Positions 3,631 through 64,000 of a stretch of DNA of 64,000 bases are shown piece after piece. Origin of the DNA: Clostridia bacterium (lineage in GTDB: Bacteria > Bacillota > Clostridia > RUG12999); contig JAFTSG010000011.1 of NCBI GenBank assembly GCA_017467445.1, positions 24,017 through 88,016 of the forward strand. Direction: 5' to 3'. The stretch's first letter is position 1. Each line of letters begins with the position of its first letter. The translations under genes and the position numbers were made by a program. Under the pieces are notes generated by a model. The model was not told the DNA's origin. It did not search any database and saw only the letters and a list, made by a program, of their open reading frames with translations.

Positions 3631-4191
3631 TCACATATTCAGGGATTTATCAAGCTGATTTACAAGGAAAATGGAAACAACCACTGTAATTACAATTTCA
3701 ATAGACATATATGAACCGTTATATATAAGTGAATACATAAATGCCGACTGTCCTTCCGGTGCATATACGCTCCAGATAAGCATTCCGGACAGCAAATGGC
3801 ATATGAATCTTGCAAAGGTTACTGCAAAGCTGCTTATTCCTGCGCCTATGTACTTATTTTTAAACTTTCGTTTTATGCTACCGGCAAATCCAAGTACCGT
3901 AAATGCAATAACATAGTCAAGCAAAATTACCGCTATATATGACAAAAAGGTTTCCGCCGGCGGTGCGATTCCGCCCAGCATCATTTGTATAAGTGAATAT
4001 ACAAATGATGTTATAAGCGCATATTTTAAATTCGCCGAAAACGAAAACAGTATTATGGGCGCCATTGATGCAAGGGTTACCGTGCCCTCCTGCGGCAGAC
4101 GGACAAGCGGAATCATTGAAAGTACCGTCGCTACCGCAACCATAAGCGCTCCCGTTGTTATTTTTCTTGTGTTCATATTACCACATCCCAT
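3631..4191 (-). CDS. thiT: thiamine ECF-transporter S component (ThiT-like)
   Basis: 186 aa and about 6 hydrophobic helices. It lies immediately downstream of a TPP riboswitch. The real start may be the second ATG at 4176 (MNTRK...). Confidence 0.7.
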   Translation of the reverse strand: MGCGNMNTRKITTGALMVAVATVLSMIPLVRLPQEGTVTLASMAPIILFSFSANLKYALITSFVYSLIQMMLGGIAPPAETFLSYIAVILLDYVIAFTVLGFAGSIKRKFKNKYIGAGISSFAVTFARFICHLLSGMLIWSVYAPEGQSAFMYSLIYNGSYMSIEIVITVVVSIFLVNQLDKSLNM

Positions 4192-4322
4192 AAAAAAATT
4201 GCAGGCGATAATGCCTGCAATTTAAATACTTAAATATTCTTCCTACGCCGGCATTATCCGTATCAGGTTTAAAGGGTTAGACCAAAAGTCCTCTCAGCCT
4301 GCTATGCAAGCACCCCTGATAA
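4192..4322 (-). promoter_or_regulatory. TPP (THI-box) riboswitch with terminator-type expression platform
   Basis: The minus strand reads GGGGUGC..GCUGAGAGG..ACCCUUUAAACCUGAUACGGAUAAUGCCGGCGUAGGAAG (4238-4320), which matches the conserved THI-box core. It is followed by the hairpin ATTGCAGGC-attat-GCCTGCAAT plus U7 (4221-4192), just before the thiT start. Confidence 0.85.
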
Positions 4323-4342
4323 ATATATTTAGTTTTTATTTA

Positions 4343-25074: not shown

Positions 25075-25086
25075 AAGGACATCCTC

Positions 25087-26364
<1,278 letters not shown>

Positions 26365-26562: not shown

Positions 26563-26591
26563 AAACTAAATATACTTTAAGGAGATTCGCC

Positions 26592-27830
26592 TTGGACGAA
26601 ATAAAAGAAATTGCAGTTTTGGCAGGTATTGTTTCAGATAGAAGAGACGTCACATATAGCGACGATTCTACAATTGAAGAGCTTGCCGAGCTTGCCAAAT
26701 CAGCAGGCGCCGAGGTTGCGGCAAAAGTGCTTCAGCCTAAAGACGCACCTGATGTAGCAACATATCTCGGCAAAGGTAAAATTGAAGAATTAACCGAGCT
26801 TTGCAAAAACCTAGAAGCAAACCTGATTATATTTGATGACGAGCTTTCCGCATCGCAAAGAAATAATATTGAGGATTTGACAGGCGTAAGGGTTACCGAC
26901 CGCACCACGCTTATTCTTGATATTTTTGCCGCACGCGCACAGTCGGCAGAAGGCAAACTTCAGGTTGAACTTGCCCAGCTTAAATATATTCTTCCCCGCC
27001 TTATGGGGATTGGTAAAAGTCTGTCCCGACTTGGTGCCGGAATCGGCACAAGAGGTCCGGGGGAAACCAAGCTTGAAACCGACAGACGTCATATAAGAAG
27101 CCATATTTCAAAAATTCAAGGCCAGCTGAAAGAGGTTGAAAAAAGGCGCAGCTATATGCGCGAGCGCCGCAAAAAAGACGGATTTCAGACAGTGGCACTT
27201 GTGGGATATACCAACGCGGGAAAATCCACTCTTCTCAACTATTTAACCAACGCAGGCGTGCTTGCAGAGGATAAGCTTTTTGCAACACTTGACCCGACGG
27301 CACGCGCACTTACCCTACCCGACGGACGTGAGGTTATCCTTATTGATACGGTTGGATTTATCCGCAAACTTCCCCATCATCTTGTAAATGCGTTTAAATC
27401 AACACTTGAAGAAACGCGGTATGCATCACTTATCCTCAACGTGGTGGATTATTCAAACGAAGAATATCTTGAACATCTTAAAGTAAGCGAAAACCTGCTT
27501 ACCGAGCTTGGATGCAGCGATATTCCCGTTTTAAACGTATTTAATAAATGCGACCGCGTGGATGCAGATACTAAAACCTGCGGTAACAACGTGTATATTT
27601 CCGCCAAAAACGGCACAAATATGGACGAGCTGTTGCGTATGATTTGTACGCATCTGCCCGTAACGAAACGCCGTATGAACCTGCTTATTCCATATACGCA
27701 GGCGGGACTTAGTGCACAGCTTCGCGAGGACGGCATTATCATAAACGAAGAATATGCCGAAAACGGCGTTAAAATTACTGCAGATGTAGAGCAAAAAGCG
27801 GTGTATAAATATGAACAATATGAAATCTGA
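26592..27830 (+). CDS. hflX: GTPase HflX
   Basis: 412 aa with a TTG start 7 nt after AAGGAG. G1 is GYTNAGKST, and the N-terminal domain is HflX-type. Confidence 0.9.
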   Translation: MDEIKEIAVLAGIVSDRRDVTYSDDSTIEELAELAKSAGAEVAAKVLQPKDAPDVATYLGKGKIEELTELCKNLEANLIIFDDELSASQRNNIEDLTGVRVTDRTTLILDIFAARAQSAEGKLQVELAQLKYILPRLMGIGKSLSRLGAGIGTRGPGETKLETDRRHIRSHISKIQGQLKEVEKRRSYMRERRKKDGFQTVALVGYTNAGKSTLLNYLTNAGVLAEDKLFATLDPTARALTLPDGREVILIDTVGFIRKLPHHLVNAFKSTLEETRYASLILNVVDYSNEEYLEHLKVSENLLTELGCSDIPVLNVFNKCDRVDADTKTCGNNVYISAKNGTNMDELLRMICTHLPVTKRRMNLLIPYTQAGLSAQLREDGIIINEEYAENGVKITADVEQKAVYKYEQYEI

Positions 27831-30282: not shown

Positions 30283-30728
30283 AGGGCTCCCTTGTGCAAA
30301 GGGAGCTGTCGAACGCAGTGAGACTGAGGGATTGTTTTTACAAAATTTATTTTTACCCATTACCCTAATCTTAACACTTACAATCCCACCGGGTTTGCTA
30401 CGCAACCCCACCTCCCTTTACACAGGGGAGGCTTTTTGCGGAACGGATAAATCCGTTCCCTACAATAAATTTTGTGATACATCTTCTGTAGGGAATGCAT
30501 TTATGCATTCCGCCTTGCCGGAGCGTATAAATCCGTTCCCTACGATGATAATATTAAAATTTCCGTCTGTCATTCTGAGCGTTAGCGAAGAATCTCACAA
30601 AAGAGATCCTTCGTCGCATTCGCTCCTCAGGATGACAGAAAGGAATTTGCAACACCGCAGGATGTAGGGAATGCCGCAATGCAAACATTCCTCATTCGGA
30701 CCGTTCGCGTTGTGGCGGTCCCTACGGT
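30283..30728 (+). repeat. REP-like mosaic repeat block, locus 1
   Basis: Five hairpin-CTAC units lie at 30440-30463, 30488-30511 (inverted), 30520-30544, 30664-30691 (inverted) and 30698-30727. A long imperfect hairpin GTCATTCTGAGCG..GCTCCTCAGGATGAC spans 30569-30636, and a CCTCCCTTTACACAGGGGAGG hairpin spans 30411-30431. Confidence 0.85.
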
Positions 30729-30789: not shown

Positions 30790-33732
30790 TTAGTCTCTGC
30801 CTTTGAATACAACTGCTTCAACTACTACTACGCCGTTAACTGTTTTGATGAGAGCGATGTCACCATCTTTTGCAACGCCTTCTTCAGCTGTGATAGCACT
30901 GTCAGCTGTGAAGCTTCCGAGGTCACCAGCAAGAACTTTAACGCCTGTAGCATGAGCAAGGTCAACTTCTGTTACGATAGAATCAGCTTTGAGTGTAAGA
31001 ACTTTAGAATCTTCTGCTGTTGCTGCAATTCTATCCTGAATTGTAAGTCTTGTACCTTTGAGTGTAGCAACATAACCAAGGTAGTATGTGTATGTTGTAC
31101 CAGCTACATCTTTTTCACCAACTTTAACAGCTGCTGCATCGAATGCCGGATCCTGTAATGTCGCCGGATCACCTGCCATCGGGTAGAGAGCAGATTTCAT
31201 TGCGGAAGCAGCCTGAACTCTAACGATTTTAGCAGCTTCGCCAGCACCGTTTACGCTATAGAGGATTACATCACCTTTAGCGAGTACGCTTGCATAACCC
31301 TGGTCAGAACCTTCAAGGATTTTGCCAGCATAATCACCTGAAGCAGGTACTGTTGTGTTGTAAACTTTTGCTCCGCCTGATTCTGTAGAAGAGAAGAGTG
31401 TTACTTCTTCGCCATTTACAAGACCTGTAAGCTGAACACCAACAACACCGTCAGCATTTGTTCTTGTAGCTTTGCCTGTGATTACCATGAAGTTAGCAGC
31501 CCAGTCAATTCTACCTGTGATGCCGTATCCAAGGAGGATAGTAGCTTCGCCGTCGTCTGTTGAGTTGAATGCTGTCATTTTGTAGTTAGCTCTGTCAACG
31601 AGAACGTCTTTTGTAGCGATTGCAACAAGATCTTCATCAACAGCTACTGTTGTAGAAACAGTTTCAGGTACTGTAAAGATTACTGTAGCATCTGTAAGAA
31701 CGTTACCATTGTACATTTCTGTTGCAGCATTGTAATCTAAGTTTGATGTGTTACCGTCAGATACGAAATCTGATTCAGCAGCAGGTGTTACATAAAGGTT
31801 GTCGATTTCGCCGTCTGCGTTGAGTTCGTAAGCAACGAGTGTGTTGTAAACGTATTTAGCACTGTTTACAGAGTTGTCACCAAGATCTTTGAAAACATCA
31901 ACTGTGCCTGCAACACCGTCGAGGTCGAAGTCTTTATCAAGAACGTATGTGTTCCATGTTCCTTCTGTATCCATCATTCTGAGTTCCATTGTGTCAGCTG
32001 TGAGACCTGTAGATTCCATAGCTACTGTAACGAAACCGTATTTGAGGTTACCAACTTTAGATGTTTCATCAAGTCCGCAGATGATTCCACGAGCGTTGAT
32101 GTAGAAGTCAGCTTCGTCACCGAGTGTGAGAGAAACTTCGTCGTTGTACGGATATGCAACGCCATCGATATAAACGATTTTGTTTTCTGTGTCAAGACCG
32201 TCGATTTTACCTGATACAGACTGTGTATTGATGATAACAGTACCGTATTTAAGTTCATTTGTGTTTGTTAAACCACCAGCTATGCTGAGAACGTCGTTTT
32301 CAGCAATTGCTGTAAAGTCAACTACTTCACCGTCTTTAACGATTTCGAATGAATATGCATCATTTTCTTCGTCAAGAACGAGTGTTGAAGGCCAAGTACC
32401 CATTAATGCACTTTCCATAGCGCCTTCAGTGATTACTCTGTATTTACGAGCGTTGAGAGATTCAACAACGTAGTCAACATATGCTGTTACATAAGCAATG
32501 TCATAAACGCCGTCGCCTTGCTGGTCAAGAAGTCTGATGTCAGCTTCTGCATCATCAGCAAAGATTGCTGCTGCTGTAAGGCTGTGACCTTCTGAGTTAC
32601 CATTGAGGTAAATTTTAGTAATGTTTACTTCGTATTTTTCAGAAGCATCTTTTGCTTCATCTGTGAAGATAGAAACAAATTTTCTTGCAGATACGAGATC
32701 TGTTTTTGTTTCATCGATTTCTTCTGTTGCGAAAGCGATTTCATTGTAACCAAGATCCTGTTTTTCGATAGCTACGATTACTGCATTTCTTGTTGTAGCA
32801 TCTTTAACGTATACTTCAACTTCGTAATCGATAAGAGCTTCAGCTTTTGCAACTGCATCTGCTGTAGCTTTAAGTTTTGTAGCACTCATTAAGTTTGTAA
32901 GATCAGGTTTTGTTCCAGGGTAATTAAATGCAACCCAAGCACCTTCGTTGTTAGATTTGAGAGCTGCATATTTGTATGTCGCGCCTGTAAGATCATCAGT
33001 AAAATCAAGTTTGATTTCATCATCTTTTACATCAGCTGTTTTAGCTGTGCCTTCGATTGTAGCTTTAACTTTAACAACACCGATTCTGTTGAGGAGAAGA
33101 GTATTGTCGTAGTCGTATTTAACTTCGTCACCGAAGCCTGTCTGAGACATCATAGGAACTTCAAGAGCGTTGTAAGCGAGCTGAGCTACAACACCACGAG
33201 ATGCTGCAACGCCTGCTTTACCGTCTGTAATTCCATCAAGAATACCAGCCTGAGCTGCTACGATCTGGAATCCACCCGGGTATCCGCCGTTAGCTTCAGC
33301 AACTATTGTCTGTCCAAGAGCTGCTACAACCATTTTGATTGCCTGTTCGTAAGTTACGTTGTCTTCCGGACCGAAGTTTCCGTCGCCGTAACCGTTAACG
33401 ATACCCTGCTGTGCAGCAAGTGCGATTGCACCGGATGCCCAGTGATCAGCCGGTACGTCGTTAAACGGAGCATAGCTAGCAGGAACTTCTGCTGTAGCAC
33501 CGTATCCGAGGAGACGGCAAACTACCATTGCAAATTCTGCTCTGGTGATGTCACCTTCCGGTTTGAATGTTCCGTCTTCATAACCTTTGAGCATGTCAAG
33601 GCTGCTAAGAACGGAAACAGCTTCTGCGTAGTTAGCATCGTCAGCTACATCTGTGTAAGCAGCAAAGCTTACCATTGATAAAGCCATAACTAATGCGAGA
33701 ACTACTGCTAAAACTTTTGATAAGTTCTTCAT
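30790..33732 (-). CDS. S-layer protein with three N-terminal SLH domains
   Basis: 980 aa with a signal peptide (MKNLSKVLAVVLALVMALSMVSFA). SLH repeats include FTDVADDANYAEAV..L..L.GYEDGTFKP and FNDVPADHWASGAI. The remainder is long, acidic and Thr/Val-rich. The RBS GGAGGAG and promoter are strong. Confidence 0.85.
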   Translation of the reverse strand: MKNLSKVLAVVLALVMALSMVSFAAYTDVADDANYAEAVSVLSSLDMLKGYEDGTFKPEGDITRAEFAMVVCRLLGYGATAEVPASYAPFNDVPADHWASGAIALAAQQGIVNGYGDGNFGPEDNVTYEQAIKMVVAALGQTIVAEANGGYPGGFQIVAAQAGILDGITDGKAGVAASRGVVAQLAYNALEVPMMSQTGFGDEVKYDYDNTLLLNRIGVVKVKATIEGTAKTADVKDDEIKLDFTDDLTGATYKYAALKSNNEGAWVAFNYPGTKPDLTNLMSATKLKATADAVAKAEALIDYEVEVYVKDATTRNAVIVAIEKQDLGYNEIAFATEEIDETKTDLVSARKFVSIFTDEAKDASEKYEVNITKIYLNGNSEGHSLTAAAIFADDAEADIRLLDQQGDGVYDIAYVTAYVDYVVESLNARKYRVITEGAMESALMGTWPSTLVLDEENDAYSFEIVKDGEVVDFTAIAENDVLSIAGGLTNTNELKYGTVIINTQSVSGKIDGLDTENKIVYIDGVAYPYNDEVSLTLGDEADFYINARGIICGLDETSKVGNLKYGFVTVAMESTGLTADTMELRMMDTEGTWNTYVLDKDFDLDGVAGTVDVFKDLGDNSVNSAKYVYNTLVAYELNADGEIDNLYVTPAAESDFVSDGNTSNLDYNAATEMYNGNVLTDATVIFTVPETVSTTVAVDEDLVAIATKDVLVDRANYKMTAFNSTDDGEATILLGYGITGRIDWAANFMVITGKATRTNADGVVGVQLTGLVNGEEVTLFSSTESGGAKVYNTTVPASGDYAGKILEGSDQGYASVLAKGDVILYSVNGAGEAAKIVRVQAASAMKSALYPMAGDPATLQDPAFDAAAVKVGEKDVAGTTYTYYLGYVATLKGTRLTIQDRIAATAEDSKVLTLKADSIVTEVDLAHATGVKVLAGDLGSFTADSAITAEEGVAKDGDIALIKTVNGVVVVEAVVFKGRD

Positions 33733-33813
33733 TAGAACTCCTCCTTATAAAAAATTTATTTTTTTATCACCTTTAATAGGCGTGGTACACACTTTTACTG
33801 TACCCTTGCGTTG

Positions 33814-33843
33814 ATTATAACACTACAAAAGCACCAATGTCAA
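33814..33843 (-). promoter_or_regulatory. near-consensus sigma-A-type promoter of the S-layer gene
   Basis: The minus strand reads TTGACA (33843-33838), an 18-nt spacer, then TGtTATAAT (-10 hexamer at 33819-33814). This implies a 5' UTR of about 75 nt. Confidence 0.6.
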
Positions 33844-34047
33844 GCGTTTATGCAATATGTAACGAAAATGTAACTTATTTCGTAACAATGTTACAAAAAC
33901 ACCCGAGTCCGTACCTTATATAATAATATAATCAACATAAGAGTACAACAGGATTATTTGCCGTTAAACAAACATTTCCCGATAGTATACCCATATCATT
34001 ATACCAAACCAAAATTTGGTTGTCAATGAAAATTTTTCTTTTTTCGA

Positions 34048-35226
34048 TTATTTTTTTACACCTTTTGACCCAAATCCCAGTTCAAGGATGTTTGTGTCAT
34101 ATGAGAATGTAAGATTTTTGCGTTTGCGGTCGCGTTTTAATGCAAGGCGGACAAGTTCATCAATTATTTCATTAAACTCTACACCTGCTTCTTTCCACAG
34201 ATAGAACGAAAGCGAGCCCGGAATTGTGTTTATTTCGTTTACAAAAATTTCGCCGCTGTCTTTATCTATCATACAGTCAACTCTTGATACGCCGCAGCAG
34301 CCAAGTGCTTTGAATGTATCGGCAACATATGAACGAATTTTTGTTTCGGTTTCTTTATCAAGGTCGGCAGGAACTTTTCGGTCAAGACTTGCCATTCCGC
34401 CGCTTTCGCTGGTTTTTCCTTTGCCGCCTTTCATATATTTATCTTTATATGAAAGAATTTCGTCGCCGGAGAAGGGTTCTTCGCAAACGGAAGTTTTTAC
34501 CTCGTCTACATCTCCCATTGCGGAGCAGTTTATTTCGCGGAGGGCAGTTATTGCCTTTTCTACCAGAATTTTTTCTGAATATGACGCTGCTTCATCAACA
34601 GCTTCTTTAAGCTCATCCTGATTTTTTGCTATTTTTATGCCTACGCTTGAGCCAAGGGACGCAGGTTTTACGATTACCGGATATCCGATTTTTTCAATTT
34701 TAGAAATTATTTCTTCCGGAGTTTCAACCCAAGCCCTTGTATAGAAATATTCACACGGCAGTACAGGAACACCGTTTGCCTGCAGAATTTGTTTCATAAG
34801 CACCTTGTCCATACCGAGTGCGGACGAAGCTGTATCGCAACCTGCGTACGGTACCATAAGTGTTTCAAGATAGCCCTGCAGGTTGCCGTCTTCTCCCCAG
34901 GTGCCGTGCATTACGGGAATTACAACATCCACCGTGCCGATTACTCCGCCAAAAAGGGCCCTTGGATATTTTTCTATTTTTACCGACTGTCCGTCATTTA
35001 CAAGAATGACTCTGCTTGCTTTTCCCAAAAGTTCTTTTACATTTTTGAACGCATCAACGCTTGTCATTTCAGGATGCGTATACATCATTCCGTCTTTTGC
35101 TATGTAAATCGGAATTATGTCGTATTTGGTTTTGTCCGCCGCCGCCATTGCCTGCTGGGCAGATATTACGGAGATTTCATGTTCAACGGAGCGTCCGCCA
35201 AACATAAATGCAAGTTGTGTTTTCAT
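34048..35226 (-). CDS. ddl: D-alanine--D-alanine ligase (long form)
   Basis: 392 aa with the N-terminal FGGRSVEHEISVISA and an ATP-grasp core (GYPVIVKPASLGSSVGI, EINTIPG). Confidence 0.85.
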   Translation of the reverse strand: MKTQLAFMFGGRSVEHEISVISAQQAMAAADKTKYDIIPIYIAKDGMMYTHPEMTSVDAFKNVKELLGKASRVILVNDGQSVKIEKYPRALFGGVIGTVDVVIPVMHGTWGEDGNLQGYLETLMVPYAGCDTASSALGMDKVLMKQILQANGVPVLPCEYFYTRAWVETPEEIISKIEKIGYPVIVKPASLGSSVGIKIAKNQDELKEAVDEAASYSEKILVEKAITALREINCSAMGDVDEVKTSVCEEPFSGDEILSYKDKYMKGGKGKTSESGGMASLDRKVPADLDKETETKIRSYVADTFKALGCCGVSRVDCMIDKDSGEIFVNEINTIPGSLSFYLWKEAGVEFNEIIDELVRLALKRDRKRKNLTFSYDTNILELGFGSKGVKK

Positions 35227-35273: not shown

Positions 35274-35469
35274 TCGGAACGACACACAGGTCGTTCCCTA
35301 CGATGTCGGTCATCCTGAGGAGCCTCTGCGACGAAGGATCTATGAGATTCTTCGCTAACGCTCAGAATGACATTCCGGAACGTTCGCATTGTGTCGTTCC
35401 CTACGGGGGTTGTTTTTTACAATCCCTCCACCGCTACGCGGTCCCCCTCCCTTTACACAAGGGAGGCGG
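35274..35469 (-). repeat. REP-like mosaic repeat block, locus 2 (between murF-like and ddl)
   Basis: Hairpin-CTAC units lie at 35276-35302 and 35377-35406. The long hairpin at 35309-35371 is the inverted copy of 30569-30636. GGGGTTGTTTTTTACAATCCCTCC and CCCTCCCTTTACACAAGGGAGG modules fill 35405-35466. Confidence 0.85.
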
Positions 35470-44600: not shown

Positions 44601-45841
44601 TTGTTTTCACCTTTCTTATCTATTCTTTGAATTACCATTTTTAACACATTTTTTACAGTTCTTCCCCGTACCTTATCCCTGCTTCCGTCGAGTTTAAGTT
44701 TTTCGCATATTGTGCCGCCGTTATCGGCAAGTGCAATATACACAAGACCCACCGGTTTTTCGGCACTTCCGCCGCCGGGTCCCGCAATTCCCGTTACCGA
44801 AACGGCTATGTCGGCGCCGGATGCCGCTCTTGCACCCTCTGCCATTTCTTTTGCCGTCTCACTGCTTACGGCACCGTAGTCCGCAAGCGTTTTATCTTTA
44901 ACACCAAGCATTTTCATCTTGGCACAGTTTGCATATGTCACATATCCGCTGCCGAATATTTCCGAGCTTCCAGCTACGGATGTTATTTCCGATGCTATAA
45001 GTCCGCCCGTACAGGATTCCGCAGTTGATATTGTAAGTTTTTTCTGTATAAGCTTTTTCACAAGCGCCTCTACAAGAGTTGTGTCGTCCTCGCCGTATAT
45101 ATACTCGCCAAGTCTTGCATAAATTTCTTTTGCAACCGGCTCAATAAGCTTATCTGCCTCATCTTCGGATTCTGCCATTGCAGTTATACGAAGCTCGGAT
45201 TCTCCCTCTTTTGCATATGGTGCAACAGTCGGGTTTTCACCTTCCATAAGGTCTGTTACTTCCGCCGCCATATTCGATTCGCCTATATCAACCATTTTAA
45301 GTGTTCTTGATTTTATAATGCTGCCTGTTTTTTCTTTCAGCCACGGTTTTACTTCATTCTCAAACATTGGGTTCATTTCTTTCGGCGGTCCCGGAAGAAG
45401 AATTGCCGTTTTTTCGCCATTTTCTATAATAAGTCCCGGTGCAGTACCGCAGTTGTTTTCAAGAATTATGCAGCCCTCCGGCATATATGCCTGCTTTTCG
45501 TTGGTTTCGTTCATTTCCCTGCCCATACGGTCAAAATATCCTTTTATTCTGTCAAGCGAGGGCTGATGGAGTACCAGTTTTTTGCCGAAATATTCTGCTA
45601 TTATCTCTTTTGTAAGGTCATCCTTTGTAGGTCCGAGTCCGCCCGTTAAAATAACAAGGTCCACTCTTTTATACGCATCTTTAATTGCATCTTTAAGACG
45701 GCCGGGATTGTCGCCCACCACCGTCTGATAATACACAATTACGCCGCAATCCGAAAGTCCTGCCGCCAAATCGCGTGCGTTTGTATTAACTATCTGACCA
45801 AGCAAAAGTTCTGTTCCAACAGCTATTATTTCAGCTTTCAT
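44597..45841 (-). CDS. cinA: competence/damage-inducible protein CinA (PncC-type)
   Basis: 414 aa with an N-terminal MoCF-biosynthesis-like domain and a C-terminal CinA domain. The cinA-recA order is conserved. Confidence 0.9.
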
Positions 45842-45862
45842 TTATTGTATCAATCCTTTAAG

Positions 45863-46076
45863 AGCCGAGGGGAATCAAACCCCATAAGCCTTTATTTTGT
45901 TATTTTTTATTCTTGACTTTTCCCTATGTTTAAAGGTCGAAGAGTTTTAAACCTTTAAATTTTGATGGAAGACAAAGAAAACCCAAAAATAATACTCGCG
46001 TATATTTGCAGGGTTTTCTGCAGTATTACGCAAAATTTATGGTTTAAAACCTTGTGGGGTTGGGTTCCACTCGGCT
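45863..46076 (+). repeat. 214-bp MITE-like element, copy 1
   Basis: Terminal inverted repeats are AGCCGAGGGGAATCAAACCCCATAAGC and CCTTGTGGGGTTGGGTTCCACTCGGCT. It is homologous to 54481-54694 and, in part, to 63701-63778. It has no ORF. Confidence 0.85.
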
Positions 46077-46507
46077 CAGAACATTATAAATCCTATTGCA
46101 AGTCCGAGTGCCGCACCCGCAAACACTTCAAGCGGTGTATGTCCAACAAGTTCTTTCAGCTCTCTGCCAAAATCCGTACCGTCATCAATCCAGTTTTCAA
46201 CCATTTGATTGATTATCTTTGCCTGCTCACCTGTTTCTCTTCGGACACCAGCCGCATCGTACATTACTATTGCTGCAAGTACAAAGCACATTGCAAAAAG
46301 CACGCTTGCCGCGCCCTCGGTTCTTCCAACAGCTACCGCAAGTGCGGTTACCATTGCAGAATGTGAACTGGGCATTCCGCCCGCACCTATCATTCTGCTT
46401 ATATTAAGTTTACGTTTAAGCAAAAGGTCAATTGCTACTTTGAGAAGTTGCGCAACAAACCAAGCAAGAAGCGCACATCCAAGTATTTTATTACTGAATA
46501 TCCCCAT
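46076..46507 (-). CDS. divergent PAP2-family membrane protein (DUF212-like)
   Basis: 143 aa with GGMPSSHSA and a later GHTP motif. The stop codon abuts the MITE-like end. Confidence 0.7.
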   Translation of the reverse strand: MGIFSNKILGCALLAWFVAQLLKVAIDLLLKRKLNISRMIGAGGMPSSHSAMVTALAVAVGRTEGAASVLFAMCFVLAAIVMYDAAGVRRETGEQAKIINQMVENWIDDGTDFGRELKELVGHTPLEVFAGAALGLAIGFIMF

Positions 46508-52178: not shown

Positions 52179-52337
52179 AGCCTCCCTTGTGTAAATGGAG
52201 GTGGCGAGGAACGAGCCGGAGGGATTGTTGCAACCCCCGTCATTCTGAGCAAAGTGAAGAATCTCACGAGATCCTTCGGTCACCTTTCGTTCCCTCAGTA
52301 TGACAACCGTAGGGACCTGCCTCCCGGACGGTCCGCA
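52179..52337 (+). repeat. REP-like mosaic repeat block, locus 3
   Basis: It contains GCCTCCCTTGTGTAAATGGAGG, GGAGGGATTGTTGCAACCCC, GTCATTCTGAGCAAAGTGAAGAATCTCACGAGATCCTTCGG.. and an inverted hairpin-CTAC unit (CCGTAGGGACC..GGTCC). Confidence 0.8.
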
Positions 52338-53371: not shown

Positions 53372-54469
53372 TTATTTCATCGCCGCACTGTTATTAAGGA
53401 GTGATGTGCTGTAGATAAACAGGGTGTCGGCGTTTTCAAATTCTGCAAAATTTCCTATAAATGCACTTTGCATATAACGTATATCTATTACCGTTGTCTT
53501 TTTATACCCTTGAGCAAGGAGTGGTGCTATGCTTGAGCCGAATGAATCGCGGAAAATTACAAGCTCTTTTTCGTTTCCCGCATTCGGATTTTCTATTGTA
53601 AGAAGCGGCATTGAACCCGACAAAAACATTTCGTACGGGTCTTTCCCAAATGCTTTTTCCATATCGTACATTTCACCGGGTTCGGGACTTCCGCTGCCGT
53701 AGTAGGTAACCTTAAATTCCGACATAACATCATTTGTAAGATATTTTATCTCATCCGGCTTTACCGGCAGGGCACTTTGACCTGCATACACGCCGTAAAA
53801 TGGATTTTCGAGGGTGTTTATTGTATATTCCCCCAAAATATCGCTGCCCATTTCCTTTGCAATATGCCCTGCAATATCCACTATATTTTCCTGACGCCAG
53901 TGGCTGTCGGTTTTATAATAATCGTCAAGTGAGAGCATGGGCGCAACATCAATATATTTCATATACTGCGTGCGGGATTTCATACCCTCTGTAAACGCAT
54001 CGTAATCAAGACCGGGGTATCCGCCCTGCGGTGCAAGAATAAAGTTTTTATCCGGCACTATGGCAAAATAAATATTGTCATTTTTCAAAAACTTATTTTT
54101 TATTTCAAGGAATTTATTTGCGGCATAGTCCATCATATCTTCATTTTGCGGAGTGTCAAGTTTTGAAAGATGCCCCTGTGATGCAAAAAGCCCGTTATTA
54201 TCAAGCTTTCCGAGAGCGCCTGTGGCAAAAAGCGCTTTAACCGTTCTTAATTTTTCACGCATTGGGAACTGGTCGGTACTGTAGGCTTCAAACCCGTCCG
54301 CAAACTCGCCCGAGAAGAGCGTTTCGCTTGACAGTTCCGGCATTTTTGCAAGCGCACGGCGCTCGCCCGGGGAATATTCGCCCTGCGGTTTTAATATGCA
54401 TACGGCAGAAACCGAAAAAATCAAAACCGCAAACAAAACTGTTGTTATAATGTTTTTAATTTTATTCAT
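53372..54469 (-). CDS. DHHW-family protein (partner of MBOAT acyltransferase)
   Basis: 365 aa, counted from the ATG at 54469 (RBS GGAGGA). It has an N-terminal anchor and the motif YKTDSHWRQEN. It lies downstream of an MBOAT gene, which is the usual pairing. Confidence 0.7.
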   Translation of the reverse strand: MNKIKNIITTVLFAVLIFSVSAVCILKPQGEYSPGERRALAKMPELSSETLFSGEFADGFEAYSTDQFPMREKLRTVKALFATGALGKLDNNGLFASQGHLSKLDTPQNEDMMDYAANKFLEIKNKFLKNDNIYFAIVPDKNFILAPQGGYPGLDYDAFTEGMKSRTQYMKYIDVAPMLSLDDYYKTDSHWRQENIVDIAGHIAKEMGSDILGEYTINTLENPFYGVYAGQSALPVKPDEIKYLTNDVMSEFKVTYYGSGSPEPGEMYDMEKAFGKDPYEMFLSGSMPLLTIENPNAGNEKELVIFRDSFGSSIAPLLAQGYKKTTVIDIRYMQSAFIGNFAEFENADTLFIYSTSLLNNSAAMK

Positions 54470-54480
54470 TATTTCCTCCA

Positions 54481-54694
54481 AGCCGAGGGGAATAGAACCC
54501 CATAAGCCTTAAACTTTTTAAGTTTTCATTCTTGTAATTTGTCATCCTTTAAGGTCGAAGAGTTTAAAACCCTTAAATTTTGATGGAAGACAAAGAAAAT
54601 TCAAAAATAATACTCGCGTATATTTGCAGAATTTTCTGCAGTATAACGCAAAATTTATGGTTTTAAACCTTGTGGGGCTCAATTCCACTCGGCT
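54481..54694 (+). repeat. 214-bp MITE-like element, copy 2
   Basis: It has the same length, orientation and ends as 45863-46076. It fills the whole MBOAT-DHHW intergenic space. Confidence 0.85.
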
Positions 54695-54695
54695 T

Positions 54696-56081
54696 TTAAA
54701 ATCTAAAGTACAAAAACGGATTGAACGATCCGTCGGCAAGATATGCCGTTGCAATGATAAGAAGTACAAAAAGTACGGGAATTTCAAGGATGTCTGTAAG
54801 TTTTGACGGAAGTTTGTTTTTTACCATTGTAACAAGCGGTGTTGCACCGACTGCCGCAATAACAAGCAGCGGTCCAAAGCTGCGGAGATTATATACAAAC
54901 TCCGCAGAAATAAACGGCAGTTCTCCTGCGCCGAACATTCCGCCGAGGGCGGAAAGCGCCTGTCCCATTCCCGATGCAGAAAAGATGCCAAAGCTTATTG
55001 CCACAAAGAACAGTACATAAATGTGATTTAGTCCTTTTGCACGTTCAAGATATTTTGCAAGAACAAATTTTTCAAGCATTAAAAAGACCGCAAAATAGAG
55101 TCCCCATACAATGAAATTCCATTCCGCTCCGTGCCAGAAGCCCGTTAAAAACCATACTGTAAGAATATTGAAAACAAGGCGGATTTTACCCACACGGTTG
55201 CCGCCCATCGGGATATATACATAATCCCTGAACCAGCTGCCGAGCGAGATATGCCATCTGCGCCAGAATTCGCTTATGCTGCGGGAAATGAACGGATAGC
55301 AGAAGTTTTCCATAAAGTCAAATCCAAAGATTTTTCCAAGTCCGATTGCCATATCGCTGTAGCCGGAAAAATCGAAATAAATCTGCAACATATAAGCTAT
55401 TACAAACAGCCAGTAGAACAGCACCGATTTGTCGCCCGAAGCGTGAAATGCCTCGCAAAGCTCGCCGAGAGTGTTTGCAATTATAACTTTTTTGGCAAGT
55501 CCAAGGATAAACCTGCGTATACCGAGTGCGGCTTTTTCAAAGCTGTGTGTGCGGGTTTGCAGTTGCAACTCAACATCGCTGTAGCGCACAATAGGCCCTG
55601 CAATAAGCTGTGGGAAAAGAGCCACATATGCGCCGAGGGTTATGGGGTTTTTCTGCGCCGCCACGTTCCCTCTGTATACGTCAATTGTATAGCTTAAAAT
55701 CTGGAATGTGTAAAAGCTTATTCCGATAGGAAGTGCAATTTTCAGCATACCTACCGAAAGACCTGTTATTTTATTGAAGTTTGCAATGAAAAAATCGGCA
55801 TATTTAAAATATCCGAGCATCCCAAGAGAAAAGAGCGCTGATATGCCGAGGAAAACTTTTGAAAGCGGTTTCCCACGGAATTTTTCAATTGCAATACCAA
55901 GCACATAGTTTACGAGTATGCTTGCAATCATTAAAAATACGTATTTCGGCTCGCCCCACGCATAAAACGCAAGACTCGACACAAGAAGTACCGCATTTTT
56001 AATGGGTTTCGGCACGGCAAAATATAAGAGTATTACCGCCGGCAGAAAATAGTATAAAAATGATATACTTGAAAAAAGCAT
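54696..56081 (-). CDS. MBOAT-family O-acyltransferase (AlgI/DltB-like)
   Basis: 461 aa and polytopic, with the conserved His region SISEFWRRWHISLGSWFRDYVYIPMGGNR. Confidence 0.85.
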   Translation of the reverse strand: MLFSSISFLYYFLPAVILLYFAVPKPIKNAVLLVSSLAFYAWGEPKYVFLMIASILVNYVLGIAIEKFRGKPLSKVFLGISALFSLGMLGYFKYADFFIANFNKITGLSVGMLKIALPIGISFYTFQILSYTIDVYRGNVAAQKNPITLGAYVALFPQLIAGPIVRYSDVELQLQTRTHSFEKAALGIRRFILGLAKKVIIANTLGELCEAFHASGDKSVLFYWLFVIAYMLQIYFDFSGYSDMAIGLGKIFGFDFMENFCYPFISRSISEFWRRWHISLGSWFRDYVYIPMGGNRVGKIRLVFNILTVWFLTGFWHGAEWNFIVWGLYFAVFLMLEKFVLAKYLERAKGLNHIYVLFFVAISFGIFSASGMGQALSALGGMFGAGELPFISAEFVYNLRSFGPLLVIAAVGATPLVTMVKNKLPSKLTDILEIPVLFVLLIIATAYLADGSFNPFLYFRF

Positions 56082-57144: not shown

Positions 57145-57183
57145 AAAAAAGCCTCCGCTTTCTGCGGAGGCATTTATTTTTTT
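57145..57183. terminator. terminator downstream of the VanW-family gene (bidirectional shape)
   Basis: Hairpin GCCTCCGC-tttc-TGCGGAGGC, flanked by A6 and a T-run. Confidence 0.7.
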
Positions 57184-57212
57184 GAGATTCTTCGCTCCCG
57201 CTCAGAATGACA
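57184..57212 (-). repeat. REP-like repeat, locus 4 (half-unit)
   Basis: GAGATTCTTCGCTCCCGCTCAGAATGACA is the inverted 5' arm of the long hairpin module seen at 30569-30600. Confidence 0.7.
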
Positions 57213-62554: not shown

Positions 62555-63049
62555 ATGTATAACATAGGAGACAGAATAGTTTATCCCATGCATGGTGCCG
62601 GGATAATTGAAGCAATTGAAGAAAGAGAAGTTCTTGACGAGATTAATCAGTACTATATTTTGCGCATGCCTTACGACGATATGACGGTTATGTTACCTAT
62701 TACCGGAATTGCGGCAGACAGTATAAGAGATGTTATTACTCCGGATGAAGCAGATAAGGTTATCAGCCATTTTGACGGCTTTTTTGAAGAGGTTAATTCC
62801 AACTGGAACAAACGTTACCGCGAAAACATTGCAAAAATAAAAAGCGGTAATATTTACGAGGTTGCAGGCGTTGTTAAAATGCTCCTTTTCAGGGATAAAA
62901 CACGCGGGCTTTCCTCCGGCGAACGCAAAATGCTGACAAACGCCAAACAGATTCTTATAAGCGAACTTGTTATTGCTAAAAGCACCACACAGGAAAAGGT
63001 TGAAAATATGCTTTCCGATATGGTTGACAAGTTTGTTGAGGTGAAATAA
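62555..63049 (+). CDS. carD: CarD/CdnL-family transcriptional regulator
   Basis: 164 aa with the N-terminal GDRIVYPMHGAGIIEAIEEREV (a CarD_CdnL_TRCF-type domain). The carD-ispD-ispF order is conserved. Confidence 0.85.
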   Translation: MYNIGDRIVYPMHGAGIIEAIEEREVLDEINQYYILRMPYDDMTVMLPITGIAADSIRDVITPDEADKVISHFDGFFEEVNSNWNKRYRENIAKIKSGNIYEVAGVVKMLLFRDKTRGLSSGERKMLTNAKQILISELVIAKSTTQEKVENMLSDMVDKFVEVK

Positions 63050-63715
63050 ATGAAAGTTTATGCCGGAATTGTTGCAGGCGGATGTGGCAGCCGAATGGGC
63101 GCCGATATGCCAAAACAGTACATCCCACTCGCAGGAACACCTATTCTTTTACATACCGTACGTGCATTTTTAAAATTTTCCGATGCGGTTTTTGTTGCTT
63201 GTCCCGAAAGTTTTGTAGAGTATACAAGGCAGCTTGTGGGTGAATACGCCACGGTAATCCCCGGCGGGAAAACAAGAATGGAAAGTGTCAAAAAAATTCT
63301 TGAGCGCATTTCCCCCAAAGATGATGATATTATCTTAACGCACGACGGTGTTCGTCCGTTTATTTCAGAAAGAATAATCAAAGAAAATATTGAAGAAGCA
63401 AAAAAACATCTTGCCTGCGGAACTTTTATTCCCACGGTTGATACCATATGCTTGTCGGAAGATGGTGCGGTTTTATCCGCAGTACCCGACAGAACACATA
63501 TGTACAACGTGCAGACACCGCAGACATTTAATATAAATTTACTTAAAGAATTACTTTCGTCCTGCGAAGAAAAGGAAAAATTTACCGACCTTTGCGGACT
63601 TGCCGTTTTTATGGGCAAAAAAGTCCATATGGTTATGGGTGATAGCACCAACATAAAAATTACAACGCCGGCGGATATAACACTGGCGGAAGCAATTTTA
63701 AGCCGAGTGGAGTAG
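63050..63715 (+). CDS. ispD: 2-C-methyl-D-erythritol 4-phosphate cytidylyltransferase
   Basis: 221 aa with the N-terminal GIVAGGCGSRMG. The last 4 codons and the stop lie inside the truncated MITE-like copy. Confidence 0.85.
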   Translation: MKVYAGIVAGGCGSRMGADMPKQYIPLAGTPILLHTVRAFLKFSDAVFVACPESFVEYTRQLVGEYATVIPGGKTRMESVKKILERISPKDDDIILTHDGVRPFISERIIKENIEEAKKHLACGTFIPTVDTICLSEDGAVLSAVPDRTHMYNVQTPQTFNINLLKELLSSCEEKEKFTDLCGLAVFMGKKVHMVMGDSTNIKITTPADITLAEAILSRVE

Positions 63716-63778
63716 AACACCACAAGGTTTAAAACCATAAATTTTGCGTAATACTGCAGAAACTGACGCAAATATACT
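63701..63778 (-). repeat. MITE-like element, copy 3 (78-bp truncated, inverted)
   Basis: AGCCGAGTGGAGTAGAACACCACAAGGTTTAAAACCATAAATTTTGCGTAATACTGCAGAAAC.. matches the reverse complement of the right ~80 bp of copies 1 and 2. Confidence 0.8.
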
Positions 63779-63799: not shown

Positions 63800-64000
63800 T
63801 TGCGTATAGGTAACGGATATGACGTTCACGCATTATGTGAAAACCGCAAGCTTATTTTAGGCGGCGTAGACATTCCTTATGAAAAAGGACTACTCGGTCA
63901 TTCAGATGCCGATGTGCTTGTTCATGCGGTTATGGACGCTCTCCTCGGAGCTGCCGCTCTTGGCGATATAGGGCAGCATTTCCCCGACAGTGATGATAAA
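63800..64000 (+). CDS. ispF: 2-C-methyl-D-erythritol 2,4-cyclodiphosphate synthase, 3' end cut by window edge
   Basis: TTG start 9 nt after GGAGG. My translation is [12 protein letters not shown]...[33 protein letters not shown], which carries the IspF hallmark motifs. Confidence 0.85.

Follow-up and report, generated by a model that had tools for sequence, protein, structure and literature searches.

A family of short inverted-repeat elements, probably transposable, inserted mostly in the sense orientation ahead of ribosome-binding sites in uncultured gut Clostridia

Introduction

MITEs (miniature inverted-repeat transposable elements) are mostly regarded as junk with an occasional effect on a neighbouring gene. 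The element described here was found as two long copies and one remnant in a 64-kb window (the whole stretch of DNA analysed, 64,000 nt of contig JAFTSG010000011.1 from the Clostridia bacterium assembly GCA_017467445.1) and very probably represents a family of such non-autonomous, non-coding transposable elements in uncultured gut Clostridia. We put at roughly 0.6 our overall confidence in the reading that this is a MITE family whose copies serve the host as a module of its mRNA, a compromise between the two parts of that reading. The part of it that concerns use by the host as an RNA module draws on sequence comparison and is, taken separately, held tentatively, at a little under even odds.

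Among described repeats, the element would by analogy work most like ERIC and Correia sequences, which are inserted at TA, co-transcribed, and able to affect mRNA in a manner dependent on orientation or RNases. ERIC sequences (also IRU; enterobacteria, Yersinia) are, like the element, imperfect palindromes of more than 100 nt that lie at TA in transcribed intergenic regions (PMC3049150, PMC10969869). They are co-transcribed with their neighbours, and their effects on mRNA depend on orientation (PMC3049150; PMC10969869). The element is not similar to ERIC in sequence, has about twice its length and folds into a Y rather than a single hairpin; it also has a strong sense bias, a position at the Shine-Dalgarno (SD) sequence, constraint on its orthologous copies, and Clostridia hosts.

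Correia repeats (NEMIS; Neisseria) have terminal inverted repeats of about 26 nt and duplicate their TA target. The element resembles them in the length of its terminal repeats, in its TA target and in lying mostly immediately upstream of genes. When transcribed, Correia repeats form a duplex that is cut by RNase III (PMC10969869). They carry promoters and a site for integration host factor (IHF), whereas no promoter is predicted in the element, whose sequence is not similar to theirs.

RUP, a repeat of Streptococcus pneumoniae, is thought to be moved by an IS630-type transposase with duplication of TA. Together with the BOX and SPRITE repeats of the same species, it is comparable to the element as a small interspersed repeat of a Bacillota host that has extensive RNA structure and is co-transcribed (PMC3049150). 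These pneumococcal repeats are enriched between convergent genes (PMC3049150), whereas the element lies in 5' untranslated regions (UTRs) or between co-directional genes, has another architecture and shares no sequence similarity with them. MITEs of the IS630/Tc1-mariner type have in common with the element a TA target with a T-TA-A preference, terminal inverted repeats of about 27 nt, a non-coding sequence and many deletion derivatives. Inside the element, however, lies a conserved and covarying structure under selection, which would not be expected of an insertion sequence that had simply been shortened by deletion. This Y-shaped covarying interior, a fixed place at the ribosome-binding site and the measured constraint set the element apart.

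Results

Copies in the window and their gene context

The two long copies and the remnant were compared within the window. Copies 1 (45863-46076) and 2 (54481-54694) each measure 214 nt, lie on the minus strand and are 86% identical. Copy 3 (63701-63778, plus strand) is inverted relative to them and aligns with positions 1 to 77-79 of the long copies; this 78-nt 5' remnant comprises the 5' repeat and about 50 nt, with TTAA on each side. Read on the strand of the surrounding genes, copies 1 and 2 start AGCCGAGTGGA..CCACAAGG and end GGCTTATGGGGTT..ATTCCCCTCGGCT. A search with the terminus pattern of the family, allowing up to 3 mismatches, gave 5 ends in the window at these copies and none elsewhere, against 0 in 100 shuffles, and no further window copies were found with an nhmmer profile of the family.

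In copy 1 the 5' terminal inverted repeat AGCCGAGTGGAACCCAACCCCACAAGG (46050-46076, minus strand) pairs with the 3' repeat GCTTATGGGGTTTGATTCCCCTCGGCT (45863-45889, minus strand) to form a helix, P1; 22 of the 27 positions pair by our own count, as in the fold. Predicted RNA folds of copy 1 (-71.3 kcal/mol) and copy 2 (-71.9 kcal/mol) were more stable than those of shuffled controls (z = -8.1 and -7.2, respectively).

Copy 1 lies between a DUF212 gene and cinA-recA. The final A of the DUF212 stop codon, TGA (46076-46078), doubles as the first base of the copy, and next to the 3' end of the copy stands the host spacer CTTAAAGGATTGATACAATAA, followed by the cinA ATG (45839-45841; spacer and start codon together 45839-45862, minus strand). 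The cinA SD sequence, AAAGGA, begins 3 nt past the copy and the start codon 21 nt past its 3' end. Copy 2 begins 1 nt after the TAA (54696-54698) of a 461-aa gene and ends 11 nt before the ATG (54467-54469) of a gene for a 365-aa membrane or secreted protein, with GGAGG between. Copy 3 lies in the 3' end of ispD, the frame of which enters the copy by 4 codons and stops at a TAG inside it (63713-63715, plus strand); the SD sequence (AAGGAGG) and TTG start (63800-63802) of ispF lie within about 20 nt. With this insertion, the C-terminus of IspD changed from the ancestral ...AILKGDEGACV, still present at locus L018, to ...AILSRVE. An initial annotation of the window, made from the sequence alone, had given the coordinates, lengths and orientations of the three copies exactly; the 27-bp terminal inverted repeats and the contacts with stop codons that it reported (the TGA, the TAA and the last codons of ispD) were likewise confirmed.

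Size, spread and novelty of the family

One genome per bacterial species was scanned with the pattern AGCCGAGKGGA-N8-CCAYAAGSYTT. Matches to this terminus pattern were obtained at 39 loci (numbered with the prefix L) in 17 Clostridia genome bins, one of which matched by a solo terminal remnant only; copies were found in about 16 species-level bins. All host genomes are fragmented metagenome bins, from uncultured Clostridia that inhabit the gut of goats, sheep and other animals; one bin bears the label Monoglobaceae and another Ructibacterium. With ten loci in a single bin (JAZRHB) and three copies in 64 kb here, the family is dispersed and multi-copy. Many matches lie less than 100 nt from a contig end, as would be expected of a repeat at which assemblies break.

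The collection comprises about 25 full copies. In its common form the element measures 271-275 nt (canonical length about 273 nt) and has 27-nt terminal inverted repeats, AGCCGAGKGGA...CCAYAAGG; the size forms are 83, 114, 155-157, 214, 247, 273 and 379 nt. The 214 bp that had been taken as the unit of the family is therefore not its unit, and both long window copies are internal-deletion derivatives. Copy 2, L014 and L001 lack the same stretch of about 60 nt in the right arm of the fold described below. Copy 1 and L020 lack another, overlapping stretch of about 60 nt, and since the two deletions differ, the equal length of copies 1 and 2 is a coincidence. A 379-nt subfamily (L006:1808-2131; L008:4170-4548; L032:4189-4493) has about 103 extra nt with two further hairpins, placed exactly at the three-way junction. 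Members of this subfamily were found mostly in 3' UTRs or between convergent genes, not at a ribosome-binding site. Independent 5' remnants were seen at three loci (window 63701-63778, L030:760-850 and L023:2287-2318). Those of the window and L030 break at nearly the same internal point, after AAATATAC, which suggests a deletion hotspot or a common origin.

Elements of this family are shorter than about 500 bp, are non-coding, have terminal inverted repeats, are dispersed and show insertion polymorphism with target-site duplication, features by which MITEs are recognised. Neither strand of the element has a conserved open reading frame (ORF), as the initial annotation had noted, and a small protein or toxin gene was rejected for that reason. 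An integron attC site was also rejected: it needs RYYYAAC...GTTRRRY ends, cassette arrays and an adjacent integrase, whereas the element ends AGCCGAG...CTCGGCT and the window copies are 8.6-9 kb apart among housekeeping genes (recA, ispD, ispF).

Searches of plasmids and phages gave no copies, and viral contigs gave 0 hits. Two matches were returned from JGI metagenomes, one of them (L041) by chance, and one from a protein search by way of a spurious ORF. Literature word searches for conserved element sequences returned unrelated papers only. No Rfam match to the element in the window reached the gathering threshold; at E <= 1, the terminal repeats of six canonical copies matched only a 15-nt fragment of the tmRNA T-arm (13 vs 47 bits), and weak matches to microRNA models (25-28 bits vs a gathering score of 86) were confined to the extra insert of the 379-nt L008. 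ARAGORN predicted no tRNA and no tmRNA. The family is undescribed as far as these searches of Rfam, plasmids, phages and the literature reach.

Filled and empty insertion sites

Filled and empty sites were identified by flank-to-flank comparison among the loci and the window. Five orthologous filled/empty pairs were obtained, and they show that the copies are insertions. With slashes marking the borders of the element, the filled site of copy 3 reads gcaattTTA/AGCC...ATATACTC/TTAAAAGGAGG. The same site is empty in L018 and reads gcaatcTTAAAAGGAGA; TTAA is present once in the empty site and twice in the filled one. The site of copy 1 was followed in contigs of relatives carrying cinA. It is filled in one relative (L049/L050; CinA 93% identical) and empty in three others (L051-L053), which read atgTTTTAAAGGATGGtataaATG; the empty-site orthologues of the cinA spacer read TTTTAAAGGATGGTATAAATG. 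The DUF212 stop codon and the cinA SD sequence were therefore adjacent before insertion.

The remaining pairs are sites that are empty in the window. The target TTTAAGGAGATTCGCC (26576-26591, plus strand) lies in a short 5' UTR before a TTG start at 26592 and, by our reading of the sequence, follows a TTGACA-17-TAAAAT promoter; its orthologue in JAZRHB holds a 273-nt copy on the plus (sense) strand (L015:925-1197). The target GTGTTTTAGGAGG (25083-25095, insertion at about 25087, minus strand) lies between the stop codon of a 421-aa gene and the SD sequence of the next gene, and its JAZRHB orthologue holds a 114-nt copy on the minus (sense) strand (L026:6297-6410). The site GTTGAGGTGAAATAAATG (63035-63052, insertion at about 63037, plus strand) lies between a 164-aa gene and ispD; in JAFVVU a 275-nt sense copy stands there (L018:1443-1717) and gives the upstream gene a new stop codon.

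Across the family the usual flanks are TTA/AGCC...GGCT/TAA. TTA stands before the element in 19 of 24 copies, and TAA comes after it in about 20 of 33. G is found at +4 in 12 of 33 and the mirror base, C at -4, in 4 of 28. TA is present on both sides of 13 of 24 copies, and five copies with flanks other than TTAA still have TA on both sides. With TTAA as the usual target, a 4-bp duplication or an insertion 3' of TTAA would look much like a TA duplication. By analogy with IS630/Tc1-mariner elements, the flanks fit a TA duplication that prefers T-TA-A. The earlier statement that there is no target-site duplication stands for copies 1 and 2; it does not for copy 3, which has a perfect TTAA on both sides, or for most family members.

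The insertion target is thus a TA, usually within TTAA, 0-2 nt before the SD sequence and often the TA of the upstream gene's stop codon. Because the element starts with A, insertion in the TA of a TAA stop codon rebuilds it, and the 5' end often touches a stop codon because TAA stops serve as targets and are regenerated. The stop codon has an offset of -2 in copy 1, L003, L013, L018 and L024 and is within 20 nt in most others.

Orientation and transcription context

Genes around the copies were called by ORF and SD heuristics. At about 24 independent sites the 3' end of the element is followed by a same-strand SD sequence and the start of a long ORF 10-28 nt on, with a distance of about 35 nt at one site. 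More sense cases are L010, L021, L023, L026, L030 and copy 3, and L008 and L032 are in the sense orientation after an upstream gene. Over all independent sites, the element is sense to the downstream or host gene at about 30 and antisense at 4. Orientation and position are accordingly not random, but the polarity, which had been described as strict, is a strong sense bias with exceptions.

L015 and L026 belong to the same bin (JAZRHB) on contigs that overlap in one gene. Their positions on the window are 1.5 kb apart and their orientations opposite, each copy being sense to its own downstream gene. Polarity therefore follows the gene and not replication, and a bias of replication strand was ruled out on this ground.

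Where the upstream intergenic region is long, the element still lies at the SD sequence, downstream of the promoter. A promoter scan found a perfect TTGACA-16-TATAAT upstream of the L035 copy; by our reading of the flanks, similar promoters precede L010, L011, L015 and L036, and only a -10-type hexamer precedes L004. This arrangement of sequences leads us to infer that the element lies within the 5' UTR or the intercistronic spacer and shares the transcript of the gene, in the sense direction. Inside the element no sigma-70-type promoter and no intrinsic terminator were predicted; as candidates for such signals, TATAAT and sigma-54-like matches were rejected because they are not conserved.

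The downstream genes, named by N-terminal reading and not by Pfam scan, are functionally unrelated; they include cinA, ispF, ispD, mutS, tyrS, ileS, pyrE, alr, ftsW and fhs. Coupling through an upstream ORF was also considered and rejected. The ORF from an ATG in the 3' repeat stops between -22 and +44 nt from the gene start, with no consistent relation, and runs in frame into the downstream gene at four sites. These are L014, L020, L028 and L038, where the ATG lies in the 3' terminal repeat (CTTATGGGG); if used, it would add an N-terminal MG(F/L)xSPRL..., and gene callers may annotate such extended proteins.

Conservation of orthologous copies

Copy 2 and its orthologue L014:2497-2710 are identical at 207 of 214 positions (96.7%), compared with 70-74% at third codon positions and 92-96% at first and second positions of both flanking genes. 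Copy 1 and L049 are identical at 209 of 214 (97.7%), with 75-84% at third positions of four flanking genes. L001 is 99% identical to L027 and L002, the flanks of which are 92-94% identical. At these three orthologous loci the element evolves about 10 times more slowly than the synonymous sites of the flanking genes. In the 7-kb region common to the window and L014 it is the best conserved part, and several other intergenic stretches do not align. The conserved block of copy 1 and L049 stops at the element borders.

A dead copy of a selfish element is expected to drift at the neutral rate. Because orthologous copies are far above third-position identity, the sequences indicate that inserted copies are under purifying selection. 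Concerted evolution and collapse of repeats in assembly were ruled out: orthologues are more alike than paralogues in one genome (86%), and they have locus-specific features in common, namely the deletion type and, in copy 1 and L049, a compensatory ACCC/GGGT pair.

The first 30 or so codons after copy 2 (window 54381-54469, minus strand) are 98-100% identical to L014, and the rest of that gene 73-92%.

Fold and covariation

Sixteen canonical copies with a mean identity of 86% were aligned. RNAalifold gave a Y shape of 89 pairs, 29 of them with compensatory changes. The two terminal repeats make up P1 (columns 1-26 with 254-279), which is followed by the left arm (columns 27-137), an invariant 7-nt linker UCUUCGA and the right arm (columns 145-253). 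Pairing was found in 95.9% of cells, against 34-54% when partners were slid by 1-3 columns, and 0 of 500 shuffles reached the observed value in 4 of 5 measures, including percentage paired, double changes and covariation score. The 27-nt terminal arms are kept across the family and paired in 95% of cells, and covariation links the variable middle of one terminal repeat to that of the other.

The 3' repeat of copy 1 resembles a tRNA T-arm and acceptor strand, with a loop that is not conserved, and across copies the 3' end is often GGGGTTCGATTCCCC-TCGGCT. Mimicry of tRNA or tmRNA was considered for this reason and rejected on the ARAGORN result and the Rfam match of 15 nt only. Because the 'T-loop' varies and covaries with the other end, the tRNA-like 3' end is a by-product of P1.

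The initial annotation had described internal hairpins as kept between copies. The hairpin TTTAAAGG/CCTTTAAA is not: it is 73% paired in the family, and 8-14 of 16 sequences have its G-C pairs disrupted. For the GCGTA..CTGCAG hairpin, pairing reaches 90-92% and covariation is weak; it could plausibly form in place of part of the left arm.

Conservation is highest at unpaired nucleotides: CUCUUCGACC in the junction linker, CUUUGUCUUCC in the left arm, and GGAGGACGAAG and GAGGACGACAA in the right arm. The last two are purine-rich and invariant; they face one another across a large internal loop of that arm and are present in this form on the sense strand only. By our own reading, the pyrimidine loop CUUUGUCUUCC is complementary to GGAGGACGAAG at 11 of 11 positions (two G-U) and to GGACGACAAA at 9 of 10. 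These loops occupy columns 103-113, 182-192 and 208-218 of alignment A2 and are absent from copy 1 of the window; columns 208-218 are kept in copy 2 as GGATGACAAA. Judged from sequence, the complementarity could point to tertiary contact, to alternative folding or to several sites for a protein. A pseudoknot between CUUUGUCUUCC and the purine loops was considered as a candidate only, the purine loops being invariant and the changes in the pyrimidine loop mixed by our own tally. An asymmetry of folding between the strands, based on G-U pairs, was not found. Three occurrences of the 8-mer AGGWCGAA were seen, one of which is inverted and lies at the junction.

Other features of the window

A TPP riboswitch (RF00059, 79.6 bits, E = 4e-14), unrelated to the element, was identified at 4223-4327 (minus strand), upstream of the gene at 3631-4191 (minus strand). 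A second, unrelated family of short interspersed repeats is present at 30568-30639, 35306-35372 and 57178-57212. Its units TGTCATTCTGAGCGTTAGCGAAGAATCTCA and AGATCCTTCGTCGCATTCGCTCCTCAGGATGACAGA are inverted relative to each other and stand 4.7 kb apart on either side of the genes at 30790-35226, and the third copy (57178-57212) is partial and follows a terminator. A hairpin-like unit, CCCCCTCCCTTTACACAAGGGAGGC, occurs at 35443-35467 and 52180-52204 with 92% complementarity and may be a repeat of the terminator type.

Discussion

The initial annotation had left a choice between a MITE-like family with an insertion preference and a selected intercistronic RNA. Filled and empty sites, the target and the conservation of orthologous copies lend support to these proposals, the conservation to the selected RNA in particular, and we favour a MITE family whose copies the host uses as an mRNA module.

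Several results weigh against this. The 41 loci from the pattern scans, where the spacing of end pairs was at most 379 nt, yielded neither a transposase nor an autonomous element that has these ends, and mobilisation in trans is assumed. The junctions of copies 1 and 2, being degenerate, have no clean TA duplication. The antisense copies (L006, L009, L034 and L040) include three of canonical length or longer, namely L034 and L040 (273 nt) and L006, which belongs to the 379-nt subfamily and is truncated by the end of its contig. Folding is no better on one strand than on the other (the sense strand is favoured in 14 of 25 copies, p = 0.77), and the structure alone would also fit single-stranded or cruciform DNA and is no proof of a sense RNA function. 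Predicted accessibility of the SD sequence is equal with the element native, inverted or removed. Because of this, an anti-SD cause of the polarity (the antisense strand carries CCUCC) was rejected, and thermodynamics point to no simple translational mechanism. The conservation test comprises three orthologous filled pairs, and in one of them, copy 2/L014, the conserved block continues through about 100 nt of the downstream gene. This overrun could mark a constrained region of translation initiation or signal peptide, or a recombination tract.

The strongest rival, which we consider unlikely but well worth keeping in view, is a purely selfish MITE: the insertion machinery would recognise an asymmetric target such as TTAAG(G/A), and similarity between copies would come from recent spread or recombination tracts. 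The sequence-specific flanks suit it, including the excess of G at +4 over its mirror base, as do insertion polymorphism between close species, which is a sign of recent activity, the alike folding of both strands, the lack of a predicted effect of inversion on the ribosome-binding site, and the overrun of the conserved block at copy 2. The polarity is harder to obtain in this way: TA and TTAA are palindromic and the terminal repeats near-symmetrical, and cut-and-paste insertion should be unoriented. A fixed dead copy should, moreover, decay neutrally. At the rate of third codon positions about 45-60 differences per 214 nt would be expected, whereas the three orthologous pairs have at most 5-7. 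Locus-specific variants common to both members of a pair, and the block of copy 1/L049 that ends at the element borders, speak against this rival as well.

Much less probable is a single-strand DNA element of the IS200/IS605, REP or RAYT kind, inserted 3' of TTAA without duplication, in which the right-hand TTAA would be part of the element and the orientation would come from the lagging-strand template or the non-template strand. Left flanks that are mostly NTAA and a right end of TTAA would look the same as duplication at a TTAA target, each terminal repeat can fold into a hairpin of its own (GGGG-7 nt-CCCC), a covarying structure suits folded single-stranded DNA as well as RNA, and the orientation bias is strong. 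The ends of the element, however, are true inverted repeats with 26 bp of mutual, covarying pairing. To our knowledge, the ends of IS200/IS605 elements are not inverted repeats that pair with each other. The features of IS200/IS605 palindromes and of REP/BIME sequences (no terminal inverted repeats, subterminal hairpins in the same orientation, no duplication) are not those of the element. The five copies with differing outer flanks that keep TA on both sides are better explained by TA duplication, the opposite orientations 1.5 kb apart in one genome speak against a replication-strand rule, and purifying selection is left unexplained.

Slightly less probable again is a primarily structured cis-regulatory RNA, like a riboswitch, a ribozyme or a protein platform, of which the terminal repeats would be the closing helix and mobility a secondary property. 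It would account for the conserved loops and covarying stems, the three-way junction with its invariant CUCUUCGACC linker and purine-rich internal loops, the sense polarity directly upstream of the ribosome-binding site, the strong constraint, and the complementarity of CUUUGUCUUCC to GGAGGACGAAG and GGACGACAAA. Against it, the downstream genes are functionally unrelated, derivatives without a whole module (214, 155, 114 and 83 nt) persist and are themselves conserved, there is no relative in Rfam, covariation of the loop-loop pairing is mixed by our own tally, and insertion polymorphism with target duplication is the behaviour of a transposon. A portable outward-facing promoter driving the downstream gene would explain polarity and position just upstream of the start codon, with TATAAT in the right arm of some subfamilies and Correia elements as a precedent (PMC10969869), but is very improbable: the consensus scan revealed no internal promoter, TATAAT is not kept from one subfamily to the next and lacks a suitably spaced -35, the GG-N10-GC sigma-54-like match is gone from most copies, and host promoters stand upstream of several copies by our reading of the flanks.

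As a MITE retained by its host, the element would be transcribed in the sense direction within host mRNA and kept as an RNA module. Folding predicts that the self-contained Y leaves the accessibility of the neighbouring ribosome-binding site unchanged. P1 would bring the upstream stop codon close to the downstream start region, and this juxtaposition would make a 273-nt insertion tolerable between coupled genes. By analogy, a 26-bp duplex such as P1 is characteristic of what RNase III cleaves, as in transcribed Correia repeats (PMC10969869), and also of end structures that protect. The purine loops GGAGGACGAAG and GAGGACGACAA and the pyrimidine loop CUUUGUCUUCC may be recognition sites for a trans-acting factor, which would set the processing, stability or translation of the flanking cistrons. 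Recognition through invariant purine loops present in the sense strand only would account for both the polarity and the sequence constraint. The 214-nt copies of the window would have lost the distal part of one arm and remain under the same constraint.

A more specific version, a transposable module of post-transcriptional control, we regard as doubtful. It would be a mobile, self-insulating sense RNA domain set between the stop codon or transcription start and the ribosome-binding site, and, with equally little weight, its invariant AGGA-containing purine loops would be offered to an RNA-binding factor of global reach, for example a CsrA-like protein, the 30S subunit or a ribonuclease. If true, this would place dozens of unrelated housekeeping genes in one regulon, with each copy held by purifying selection.

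In practical terms, these repeats break short-read assemblies and can alter annotated C-termini, as in ispD. For the biology of the family, the position at the ribosome-binding site, the agreement of orientation with the gene at about 30 of 34 sites and the roughly tenfold slower evolution together suggest that the inserted copies, as a whole family, now form a working part of host mRNA. If true, the family would be a clean natural system in which mobile DNA spreads a ready-made RNA domain across operons, and it would show how insertion is tolerated between tightly coupled genes such as ispD-ispF and DUF212-cinA-recA.

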